Part shown: positions 342-4,851 of the stretch, one piece after another
How the letters are laid out: each line of letters starts with the position of its first letter
Position numbering within the stretch: the stretch's first letter is position 1
Virus record (IMG/VR): IMGVR_UViG_2740892230_000008
Origin: a virus
Taxonomy: Duplodnaviria; Heunggongvirae; Uroviricota; Caudoviricetes
Reading direction: 5' to 3' (one strand)
DNA: 4,851 bases
The notes under the pieces: model-generated
What the model was told of the DNA's origin: nothing
Database searches by the model: none
What the model saw: only the letters and a program-made list of their open reading frames with translations
Program-made: the position numbers and the translations under genes

Positions 342-766
<425 letters not shown>

Positions 767-776: not shown

Positions 777-1928
777 TACGCATATCAGGGATCAGGCCTG
801 ACGGATAAGCGGCTGCAAGTTTCGGGTATGCAGATTTGTCAAAAGTCTGCCCCTGCATCAGGGCATAACCAGACGGAACGGTATCCGATGGCCACGGGAT
901 TGGTGCACCGACTGGATAAAACTCTGCAGGAGGATGAGCCGAGGTGTAAAGCTGCGCCCACGGCGACCAGTTTGCGTCGGTCATATCCCGTCGTGAACGA
1001 ATAAATGCCGGAGCATGAGCACCGCTTGTACCACTCCAGCCGATGAGTAACTCACCTTCGCCAACGGCTGTCATCCCTTTCAGGTGAATGATATTTCCAT
1101 ACGCTGTTGGATATCCGTTGTTATACACCTCGTATAACTCAAGACCTGCTGCCCCCTGCGTATTGTCTGTCAGCGCGGTTACCCGACCTTTTGAAGCCAG
1201 ATTAACTGATGATACTGCTGTTCCACCTGACGGTAACGCCCCGATCTCTGATGCCGTTGGCTTATTTCTGGAGTTATAGTCCCTTCGCCAGCCAGGTGAA
1301 TAATCTGTTCCGTGATTAATATAGGTAAACTGGGCGTTGGTTGTTCCGCCACCGCTGGATGTGGTCGGAGTGGTAATGCGGATCGTCATCGCTGACTTTA
1401 TCCCCATTACTTCAATGACAGCTCCGGCGAGATGAATATTACCGCAGTCAGTATCAGTAATGATTTTATTATTGCCATAAGACCAGGACCCCTTGCACAT
1501 CCAGTAGGGATGGTTAAATGCTCCCTGAGAATCCAGCCACTCGATAAACTGTGCAGTCGTCCAGTTTCCTGTTGTTGTGCTTACTGACCCACCGAAGGCA
1601 CGGCAGGCACCAATATTTTTCGTAAAGGTGTCTTTGCCAGGGATATCCGCACCGTTCTGATCTTTCTGCAGACGTTTCTCAGCATTGTCATTGGCTGCTT
1701 TTACTGCCTTTGGCGTTGCCGCCAGCGTTTCAGACGTGCTGTTGGTCGCGCTGCTTAGCTGGATTATCCCTTTCTGTGCTGTCGTTGCATCCTGTGCGGT
1801 GTATTTCCCGTTAGCCAGGTCATACGCGGCCTTAACGGCTTTTGGCGTTGCCGCCTGTGACTCGGAAGTGCTGTTGGTCGCACTACTGAGCTGGACTATC
1901 CCCTTTTTCGTCGTGCTCGCATCCTCAA
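777..1928 (-). CDS. stf: side tail fibre protein fragment (tail-fibre repeats, central module, conserved C-proximal linker; partial)
   Basis: Seen: same frame as ORF-track 760..3012 (-). Protein starts [82 protein letters not shown], then a central module (...[27 protein letters not shown]...), and ends ...[47 protein letters not shown]. Last ~130 nt (777-905) are an inverted copy of plus 4206-4330 with ~4 mismatches. The track's stop at 760-762 lies beyond the N run and is not meaningful. Confidence 0.8.
1681..1908 (-). repeat. two tandem in-protein tail-fibre repeat units ([16 protein letters not shown][11 protein letters not shown])
   Basis: Seen: unit 1 at 1825-1908 ([28 protein letters not shown]) and unit 2 at 1681-1776 ([32 protein letters not shown]), separated by a 16-residue spacer. 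Established: this is the short phage tail-fibre repeat found in Stf-like proteins. Confidence 0.7.
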
Positions 1929-2589: not shown

Positions 2590-3588
2590 CCGCCGCCGGA
2601 AAATCGGCAGAAAGTGCTGCATCGTCCGCTTCAACAGCCACAACGAAGGCTGGCGAAGCCACTGAACAGGCCAGTGCAGCAGCGAGGTCTGCTTCCGCAG
2701 CGAAGACATCCGAAACGAATGCGAAAGCGTCGGAAACCCGTGCAGAATCCTCAAAAACGGCAGCCGCATCGTCCGCCAGTTCGGCAGCGTCATCGGCATC
2801 ATCTGCGTCTGCTTCAAAAGATGAGGCGACCAGACAGGCGTCAGCAGCGAAGGGCAGCGCCACGACAGCATCCACGAAAGCAACAGAGGCGGCAGGCAGT
2901 GCGACGGCAGCATCTCAGAGCAAAACTGCTGCTGAATCCGCTGCGACCCGTGCGGAAGCTGCTGCTGATCGTGCTGAAGAGATTGCCGGTGCAGTTGCGA
3001 TGGAAGACGCAAGCCTTACAACTAAAGGTGTTGTGAAACTTAGCAGTGCTGTTGATAGCACCAGTGAATCGCTGGCCGCAACGCCAAAAGCAGTTAAAGC
3101 AGCCAATGACAATGCGAATAGCAGGGTGCCATCTAACCGAAAAGTTAACGGAAAAGCACTGACTGCGGATATAACATTAACGCCGAAAGATATTGGTACT
3201 TTAAATTCAGTAACGATGTCTTTCTCTGGCGGGGCTGGGTGGTTCAAACTGGCTACGGTTACCATGCCACAAGCGAGTTCCATCGTTTACATCGCATTGA
3301 TTGGTGGCGCTGGTTACAACGTCGGTTCCCCACATCAGGCAGGCATTTCAGAACTGGTTCTACGAGCAGGCAATGGAAACCCCAAAGGAATTACCGGGGC
3401 TTTGTGGAAGCGTACAGCCGTCGGATTAACGAATTTCGCCTGGATCAACACATCCGGCGATACATATGATATTTACGTTGAGATTGGCAATTATGCGACT
3501 CGTGTAAATATCCATTGGGATTGTACTGCAAATGCGACAGTTTCTATTTATACATCGCCAACATATTCAGCGAGTAAGCCTTCCAGCG
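2590..3588 (+). CDS. stf: side tail fibre protein, N-truncated fragment (Ala/Ser-rich segment, tail-fibre repeat, first part of central module)
   Basis: Seen: frame with codons starting at 2592 is open throughout: ...SASAAKTSETNAKASETRAESSKT...[118 protein letters not shown]...[29 protein letters not shown]. Absent from the ORF track because this frame has no stop before the window end. Begins directly at an N run with no start codon context. Confidence 0.8.
3021..3116 (+). repeat. tail-fibre repeat unit ([32 protein letters not shown])
   Basis: Seen: plus-strand copy of the same motif, more diverged at its 5' end than the minus-strand copies. Confidence 0.65.
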
Positions 3589-3598
3589 NNNNNNNNNN
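3589..3598. other. run of 10 N (probable scaffold gap) inside the plus-strand tail-fibre gene
   Basis: Seen: 10 N flanked by an ~85-89-bp imperfect direct repeat, 3500-3588 versus 3599-3687, with about 3 internal mismatches. Confidence 0.75.
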
Positions 3599-4851
3599 GA
3601 GTGTAAATATCCATTGGGATTGTACTACAAATGCGTCAGTTTCTATTTATACCTCGCCAACATATTCAGCGAGTAAGCCTTCCAGCGTTACCGATGGTGT
3701 TGTTTATACGATGTATAGCTCACATCAGAAACCTACACCATCAGATATTGGAGCGCTGCCAACGACTGGAGGGACTATTTCAGGTCCGTTGTCTGTTACT
3801 GATGGGATCACCGGGGCACTGAAGGGGAACGCCGATACCGCGACGAAACTTGCGGCAGCCCCAAAAATTAACGGTGTTAAGTTTGATGGCTCGGCGGATA
3901 TTAACCTCACGTCGGAAAATATTGGTGCATTTGCCCGACGTTCGACGGGGGCTTATGCGGATTCGGATGGAGCCGTTCCCTGGAATGCCGAATCAGGCGC
4001 TTACAATGTCACCCGCTCTGGCGACAGCTATATTCTGGTTAACTTCTATACCGGAGTCGGAAGTTGCCGGACCCTGCAGATGAAGGCGCATTACAGAAAT
4101 CGTGGTCTGTTCTACCGTTCTTCAAGAGACGGTTATGGTTTTGAGGAAGACTGGGCAGAAGTTTATACCTCGAAAAATCTTCCACCAGAAAGCTACCCAG
4201 TTGGCGCACCAATCCCGTGGCCATCAGATACCGTTCCGTCTGGTTATGCCCTGATGCAGGGGCAGACTTTTAACAAATCTGCCTACCCGAAACTTGCAGC
4301 CGCTTATCCGTCAGGCGTGATCCCTGATATGCGTGGCTGGACGATTAAGGGCAAACCTGCCAGTGGTCGGGCCGTATTGTCTCAGGAACAGGACGGCATT
4401 AAATCGCATACCCACAGCGCCAGCGCATCCAGTACGGATTTGGGGACGAAAACCACATCGTCGTTTGATTACGGCACTAAATCCACGAATAACACCGGGG
4501 CGCATACGCACAGTCTGAGTGGCTCTACGGGGTCTGCCGGTGTTCATACTCATGGTAATGGTATTCGTTGGCCAGGAGGCGGCGGTTCTGCGTTAGCATT
4601 TTATGATGGCGGTGGGTTCACTTATGTCCAGAATTCACAGTATCAAGTAAGCCCGGGGACTTCTTCCTATAGATCGTATTATCAACGTATTCAGACACAG
4701 TCAGCAGGTGCTCATACCCACTCGCTGTCTGGTACTGCAGCAAGTTCTGGCGCACATGCACATACTGTAGGTATTGGTGCGCATACGCACTCCGTTGCGA
4801 TTGGTTCACATGGACACACCATCACCGTTAACGCTGCGGGTAACGCGGAAA
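3599..4851 (+). CDS. stf: side tail fibre protein fragment (central module remainder, tail-collar-like segment, His-box C-terminal region; 3' partial)
   Basis: Seen: same frame continues after the N run: [111 protein letters not shown]...[79 protein letters not shown]...[48 protein letters not shown]. No stop before 4851. Established: this domain order matches lambda Stf-type fibres. Confidence 0.85.

Follow-up and report, generated by a model that had tools for sequence, protein, structure and literature searches.

The window, by which we mean the whole 4,851-nucleotide stretch of viral DNA analysed here, carries parts of two side tail fibre (stf) genes, one read on the minus strand and the other on the plus strand. 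The minus-strand gene is the stf gene of complete genomes, where it carries a RefSeq annotation, as in Escherichia coli 55989 (WP_001387657.1, 1,024 amino acids). Full-length homologues comprise PF08400, an Ala/Ser-rich region, Phage_fiber_2 repeats, two domains that we term beads A and B, a Collar domain, an HxH needle and a tip. The 5′ end of the gene is absent from the window, and the N-terminal domain was tested on the full-length genomic copy, which contains PF08400, the N-terminal domain by which prophage tail fibres are anchored to the tail (E=1.4e-71). The first 94 residues of the full protein match PDB 9E7M, 'Tail fiber protein'; at its other end, where the gene closes with ...NIAFNYIVRLA, residues 794-1024 match the T4 gp37 collar, needle and tip structure 2XGF (phmmer against the PDB, E=5e-83). 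The gene order J-lom-stf-tfa is found at two loci of E. coli 55989 and in phage mEp460. All three marks of a lambdoid Stf were thus found: PF08400, this gene order, and a gp37-like collar followed by an HxH needle.

The contig that holds the region studied here (778-1928) is present over at least 80% of its length in 801 of 5,426 complete E. coli genomes, and it also occurs in the lambdoid phages mEp460 and PhiR68_2 at 97.6-98.7% identity. The stf genes of 55989 (WP_001387657.1) and mEp460 (VUF53340.1) are the same gene, with the same architecture and synteny and nothing substantial that differs; the mEp460 stf has the same beads as the window with another tip insert. Unlike these genes, the window holds fragments only, scaffolded with pieces of other stf paralogues. 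Its features relevant to this analysis are as follows.

354-554, minus strand: tip insert in the HxH needle, the second variable cassette (seen in the 55989 stf identity profile; coordinates from the mapping of the window pieces onto the 55989 genes)
778-915, minus strand: start of the conserved collar (...PDMR); PF07484, E=6.5e-12; match to 2XGF, E=5e-83; 96% DNA identity to plus-strand 4205-4334
916-939, minus strand: C-terminal connector AHPPAEFY leading into the collar; part of a 29-column hhalign match to the plus-type bead; 63% DNA identity
940-1206, minus strand: bead B, module residues 159-247; a widespread, uncurated fibre-shaft domain
1207-1272, minus strand: inter-bead connector, module residues 137-158; core of the single BLASTP match to the plus-strand module
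1273-1617, minus strand: bead A, module residues 22-136 (NIGACRAF...WMCKGSW...GWRRDYNS); the shaft domain of Mu S', P2 gpH and P1 Sv'
1618-1680, minus strand: N-terminal connector, module residues 1-21, with the NGADIP.KD.F motif that precedes bead A in Mu S', P2 gpH and P1 Sv'
1681-1928, minus strand: upstream conserved flank of two 'phage tail fibre repeat' units (PF03406, E=5e-37 in the full-length homologue); direct-repeat families D1 and D2
3115-4196, plus strand: central module of the other prophage's stf, interrupted by a gap and an 87-nt duplication (3502-3588 and 3601-3687); 99.9% identity to the stf at the trp/yciE locus of 55989
4533-4745, plus strand: tip insert of the plus-type gene (seen in the translation and the 55989 stf identity profile; coordinates from the mapping of the window pieces onto the 55989 genes)

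A preliminary description, made from the letters of the window, had placed at 916-1680 on the minus strand a central module of about 255 residues between conserved flanks, and this holds in every respect that concerns its extent. The translation is free of stops and reproduces the 255 residues reported. The upstream boundary is exact, with the Phage_fiber_2 repeats ending at 1681 (..NDNA) and the plus-strand copy ending in the same motif at 3114. Downstream, the boundary is the YPVGAPIPW motif, which runs from 915 downward. This motif had been taken for a linker; it is instead the start of the Pfam Collar domain, homologous to the collar of T4 gp37. The described fall in DNA identity is likewise real: minus-strand 778-907 agrees with plus-strand 4205-4334 at 125 of 130 positions (96%), the next 60 nucleotides agree at 38 of 60 (63%), and further upstream the two strands' copies are unalignable. 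The NDNA repeat end of the 1681-1928 flank is the upstream recombination joint and the collar start (778-915) the downstream one. The general premise that lambdoid tail fibres are mosaics with exchangeable modules applies here, the stretch being an exchangeable cassette between conserved joints.

Comparison of the two complete stf paralogues of E. coli 55989 gave the following identity profile along the protein.

Residues 1-480: conserved, 80-100% identity
Residues ~481-787: first variable cassette, which holds the module; unalignable
Residues 788-907: conserved collar and proximal needle, 73-100% identity per 60-nt block, mostly 93-100%
Residues 908-974: second variable cassette, the tip insert; low identity
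Residues 975-1024: conserved C-terminus, 92-100% identity

Bead A is the better characterized of the two domains. Residues 539-695 of the full protein match residues 178-334 of PDB 8JU3 across the whole domain (phmmer against the PDB, E=3e-68), and residues 178-200 of 8JU3 are the same lead-in that precedes bead A here. As referred to in PMC11821841 and PMC11915804, 8JU3 is the Mu G(-) fibre gp52 (S') of Mori et al. 2024 (Virology 593:110017). AlphaFold 2 (AF2) modelled bead A with a pLDDT of 80-89, and the only significant Foldseek match in the PDB was again 8JU3 (E=1e-19). By tblastn, bead A is 82-83% identical to P2-type gpH, 74% to P1 Sv' and 71-73% to the S' proteins of Mu, SfMu and D108; an alignment of 20 homologues contains 39 invariant columns in this domain. 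In the same 20 sequences, Cys is near-invariant at module positions 62 and 79 (WMCKGSW ... DTGCGN), and many Trp and Tyr residues are invariant. Judged from this conservation pattern, the Cys pair could form a disulfide and the aromatic residues could lie on the surface, perhaps as sugar-binding positions.

The surroundings of bead A differ among these fibres. After bead A, Mu S' has a gp37_C-type bead, as found in the plus-strand module of the window, and then a Tfa-dependent tip; the Stf of the window continues instead with bead B and then with a collar, needle and tip of the T4 gp37 type. Both beads are present in P1 Sv', P7 Sv and SSU5, whose matches span 91-96% of the module with 63-74% identity; in P1 the two beads align as separate pieces. 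P2 gpH and the S proteins of P1 and P7 are fibres of contractile-tailed phages, and their N-terminal anchors and tips are unlike those of Stf.

Bead B is marked by the motif YNNGYPTxYGN...WSxWAQxYT. Its family comprises 651 representative clusters (E<=1e-3; 1.84 billion representatives searched), and the domain sits at many different places in proteins that range from 71 to 2,183 residues, with up to four matched stretches per protein. No Pfam family was matched in any of 32 members examined, and a profile search of the PDB returned no solved relative. Bead B is common, yet absent from both Pfam and the PDB, which is a mildly new point. Separately, the C-terminus of bead B (about 940-1010, minus strand; VRSRRD..WSxWAQ) weakly resembled the WSxWS strand of leptin-receptor FN3 domains, below significance (E=0.15), and this resemblance is probably due to chance or convergence. 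An enzymatic or depolymerase domain in the cassette was considered and rejected, Pfam giving it no support.

Structure prediction on the whole 255-residue module with 20 sequences was poor for bead B (pLDDT ~40-55). Modelled alone from 32 domain-trimmed sequences, bead B yielded a beta-rich domain with a pLDDT of 89.4 and a pTM of 0.74. The best structural matches of this model were all fibre proteins, namely T4 gp34, Mu S', R-pyocin fibres and a phage tailspike. The predicted fold is likely that of the T4 gp34-type shaft domains; because the match scores are moderate, this assignment is unproven. The C-terminal shaft domains of T4 gp34 (PDB 4UXE, 4UXG, 5NXF and 5NXH) are 13-18% identical to bead B, and no sequence method links the two. 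T4 gp34 forms the proximal half-fibre and is not the receptor-binding part.

The cassette had been described as one module, a view that the distribution of its parts in phage genomes does not sustain. When searched by tblastn, residues 1-147 occur alone in P2-type gpH, in S' of Mu, D108 and SfMu, in PSP3 and in Yersinia P2-like phages. In Goslar (77%), Ro157c2YLVW, Salmonella SW3 and SI7 and many Vibrio phages (45%), only residues ~133-255 are found, and P1 Sv', P7 Sv and SSU5 combine the two beads. PHROG profiles contain both beads in either order, and individual proteins display a range of arrangements. Bead A followed by a gp37_C-type bead and the tip is the Mu-like order (P0063 and P0117); A, B and tip are found in P0033 and P0042; B precedes A, a gp37_C-type bead and the tip in P0028; and the Photorhabdus fibre P0017 has two A beads before its tip.

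Three observations point to the single bead as the unit that moves. In P0010, identity to the module is 72% over bead A, 95% over the connector and 92% over bead B, and this step between A and the connector with B marks a natural joint between the beads. Mu S' combines a minus-type bead A with a plus-type last bead, which shows that the exchange unit is a single bead. Finally, beads end in a common connector, W-x-x-Y-[TN]-[ST]-x-x-KP[TS]-x-x-[DE]-[IV]-G-A, which indicates that single beads are reshuffled and not only the 255-residue block. A separate case is the 938-residue protein P0123. Bead B, a collar and a truncated needle come first in it, then more shaft domains and a gp37_C bead of the plus type, and finally another collar, needle and tip, this set being complete. 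Either two fibre distal ends have fused in tandem in nature, or the protein is an artefact of assembly or gene calling.

A second mosaic break lies downstream. The tip inserts of the minus and plus genes, situated between the HxH repeats of the needle, are completely different from one another, and both differ from that of T4 gp37 (2XGF). At least seven different tip inserts follow B beads that are nearly identical, and the mEp460-type tip is also found behind a plus-type bead, in P0123. These combinations show that cassette and tip assort independently, with the collar as their common joint. Across three phages, the Tfa assembly proteins share 92-94% identity irrespective of which cassette is present. 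The module itself lies entirely upstream of the collar, and not at the location of a gp37-type receptor-binding tip, which is distal to the collar, in or after the HxH needle. From this arrangement, the tip insert at 354-554 of the window is likely the primary receptor-contacting part.

Taken as a whole, the data are best explained by two shaft beads that are swapped at conserved joints and are mainly structural, with the tip recognizing the receptor; we give this explanation a probability of about 0.72. The cassette consists of two consecutive globular beads of the distal Stf shaft, set between the tail-fibre repeats and a T4-gp37-like collar, needle and tip. Recombination at the conserved joints, the NDNA repeat end upstream and the collar motif YPVGAPIPW downstream, has swapped the cassette between paralogous stf genes, and the connector common to bead ends offers short homology for such recombination. 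The beads would serve mainly as structural and trimerizing elements of the shaft that set the length and geometry of the fibre, and the separate variable insert in the needle would make the primary contact with the receptor. We arrive at this division between spacer beads and a recognizing tip because of the position of the cassette, the gp34-like fold predicted for bead B, the independent assortment of cassette and tip, and the two further domains that follow bead A in Mu S'. A spacer role for the beads is accordingly a reading of position, fold and assortment.

The preliminary description had called the cassette an alternative specificity module. It is alternative and exchangeable; specificity, as stated there, is unsupported given the gp37-like tip downstream and the seven or more tips found on the same B bead. 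In its fuller form this proposal would have one or both beads bind the host surface laterally, for example at the LPS core or O-antigen, so that a swap would alter the host range, either by itself or jointly with the tip. The cassette is indeed one of only two hypervariable cassettes in genes that are otherwise 80-100% identical, and bead A, with its conserved aromatic and Cys positions, is common to the LPS-recognizing fibres of P2, Mu G(-) and P1 (for P2, see PMC11338833). A precedent has also been proposed in R-pyocin fibres, in which a non-terminal 'head' domain is thought to contact O-antigen (PMC6363177). Set against these points, bead A is non-terminal in Mu S', with two more domains beyond it, and the fold of bead B appears to be that of gp34 domains, a part of the proximal half-fibre. 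Downstream of the cassette lies the homologue of the receptor-binding tip of T4 gp37; the same beads accompany at least seven tips, one of which also stands behind a plus-type bead; and the best-matching genomes keep the cassette at 99% identity while their tips swap. On balance, we consider a change of host range through the cassette unlikely, at perhaps one chance in five. A further variant would make bead B a lateral glycan-binding or environment-sensing bead that, with bead A, forms a second layer of specificity assorting independently of the tip; this we find more doubtful still.

The plus-strand module, with which the cassette was compared, is a composite. By the distribution of its sub-modules in tblastn, its N-terminal part resembles T-even gp37 and ST64B, and its last bead (about 3913-4182) is of the Pfam gp37_C type (PF12604, 24.7 bits against a cut-off of 22.5) and matches residues 320-409 of 8JU3 (phmmer against the PDB, E=3e-22). 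The two modules had been said to share no similarity visible by eye, which is mostly correct: BLASTP found no counterpart in the plus-strand module for bead A, or for the first ~140 module residues. The exceptions are two short stretches. A single significant BLASTP match (19 of 46 identities, E=1e-5) covers module residues 135-180 (window 1141-1278), at the inter-bead connector, and hhalign of a B-bead profile (64 sequences) against plus-type last beads (13 sequences) aligned only the last 29 columns (probability 93%, E=3e-7).

These two matches speak for a common ancestor of both modules, as does the MAFFT alignment, in which bead B falls against the gp37_C-type bead that Mu-like proteins carry. 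Bead B also has a fold-level match to 8JU3; provided that the aligned part is the gp37_C-type bead, and only then, the last beads would be distant relatives. It is nevertheless very improbable that the modules are diverged orthologues alignable over their whole length. Neither BLASTP nor hhalign extends the similarity beyond these stretches, bead A has no detectable counterpart in the plus-strand module, and the N-terminal part of that module belongs to another family, like that of T-even gp37 and ST64B. The modules differ in length (255 against ~327 residues), none of 32 B-bead sequences matches PF12604 even at E<=1, and the cassette DNA is unalignable although its flanks are 93-100% identical. 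The preliminary description was right, then, not to treat the module as merely a diverged orthologue. As judged from these alignments, the minus and plus genes, which are stf paralogues from different prophages, differ through replacement of a cassette.

The layout of the window requires separate treatment. Six runs of exactly 10 N interrupt it, at 332-341, 767-776, 1929-1938, 2176-2185, 2580-2589 and 3589-3598. Overlapping or duplicated sequence flanks some of these gaps: the gap at 767-776 has an overlap of 14 nt, and around the gap at 3589-3598 stand two 87-nt copies (3502-3588 and 3601-3687; repeat family D4) that are 97% identical. The pieces were mapped onto both complete stf genes of E. 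coli 55989, one in a prophage adjoining ybhB/bioA and the other in a second prophage at the trp/yciE locus.

1-122: matches either stf gene, 94% identity
342-766: best match the stf of the prophage adjoining ybhB/bioA, 100% identity
778-1928: best match the ybhB/bioA-side stf, 99.1% identity
1939-2175: best match the stf of the second prophage, at the trp/yciE locus, 100% identity
2187-2579: matches either stf gene, 98% identity
2590-3588: best match the trp-locus stf, 90% identity
3599-4851: best match the trp-locus stf, 99.9% identity

The contig at 1939-2175, which encodes ...NGRVPSNRKVNGKALTADITLTPKDIGTLNSVTISFSGGAGWFKLA on the minus strand, is 100% plus-type (trp-locus) stf, yet it sits inside the minus-strand 'gene' and is a misplaced piece. 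The head-to-head junction of the two genes falls exactly at the gap 2580-2589, within the constant N-proximal part of both. Because of the N gaps, the mapping of the pieces and the position of this junction, the window is a scaffold that joins short contigs of collapsed stf paralogues, at least two (two or three) in number. The head-to-head layout is an assembly artefact, and the 'minus' and 'plus' genes are paralogues of different prophages, not neighbours. Pieces 2590-3588 (90%) and 1-122 (94%) are less like the 55989 stf genes than the neighbouring pieces (99-100%). The source genome probably has at least a third stf paralogue. Conclusions drawn from the gene layout of this window, built as it is from collapsed paralogous prophage genes, are unsafe.

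That the cassette itself is a chimera of contigs from different genes has next to nothing in its favour, for although six N gaps, the misplaced piece at 1939-2175 and the artificial join at 2580-2589 make the window as a whole chimeric, no gap lies inside 778-1928, this contig runs collinear, at 99.1%, with complete genomes that include E. coli 55989 and O104:H4, which rules out such an origin for 916-1680, and it recurs at 97.6-98.7% identity in phages mEp460 and PhiR68_2.

An invertible cassette of the Mu or P1 type was also considered and rejected. Mu switches its fibres by Gin inversion; unlike in Mu, neither an invertase nor inversion sites are present within the window. In the invertible Mu G, P1 C and e14 P segments, alternative 3′ exons are convergent and have their own tfa; inverted crossover sites flank them, and a serine invertase gene lies alongside. 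The copies here lie head to head, which is the wrong orientation, their junction is an N gap, and they come from different prophage loci. In phage mEp460, a gene annotated 'Ser recombinase' (6373-6963, minus strand) is located directly downstream of stf-tfa, a position that recalls that of the Gin, Cin and Pin invertases beside invertible fibre segments.

The cassette at 916-1680 is an ordinary case of well-documented tail-fibre mosaicism, and its biology was already known, because it consists of two known shaft bead domains and not of a receptor-binding tip. Exchange of stf and other tail-fibre segments among lambda, P2, P1, Mu and T-even phages has long been documented, as recounted in the passage of PMC3945230 that cites Montag 1989 and Haggard-Ljungquist 1992. 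What is mildly new is that bead B has neither a Pfam model nor a solved structure, and that joints at the level of single beads can be mapped precisely. The finding leaves the understanding of tail-fibre mosaicism unchanged, and its value is mostly practical. The exact natural joints, namely the NDNA repeat end, the KPTAxDIGA connectors and the collar, are now mapped, and junctions of this kind are used to engineer chimeric fibres for phage-based delivery, as in a working fusion of lambda Stf residues 1-393 to P2 gpH from residue 251 to its end (PMC11338833).
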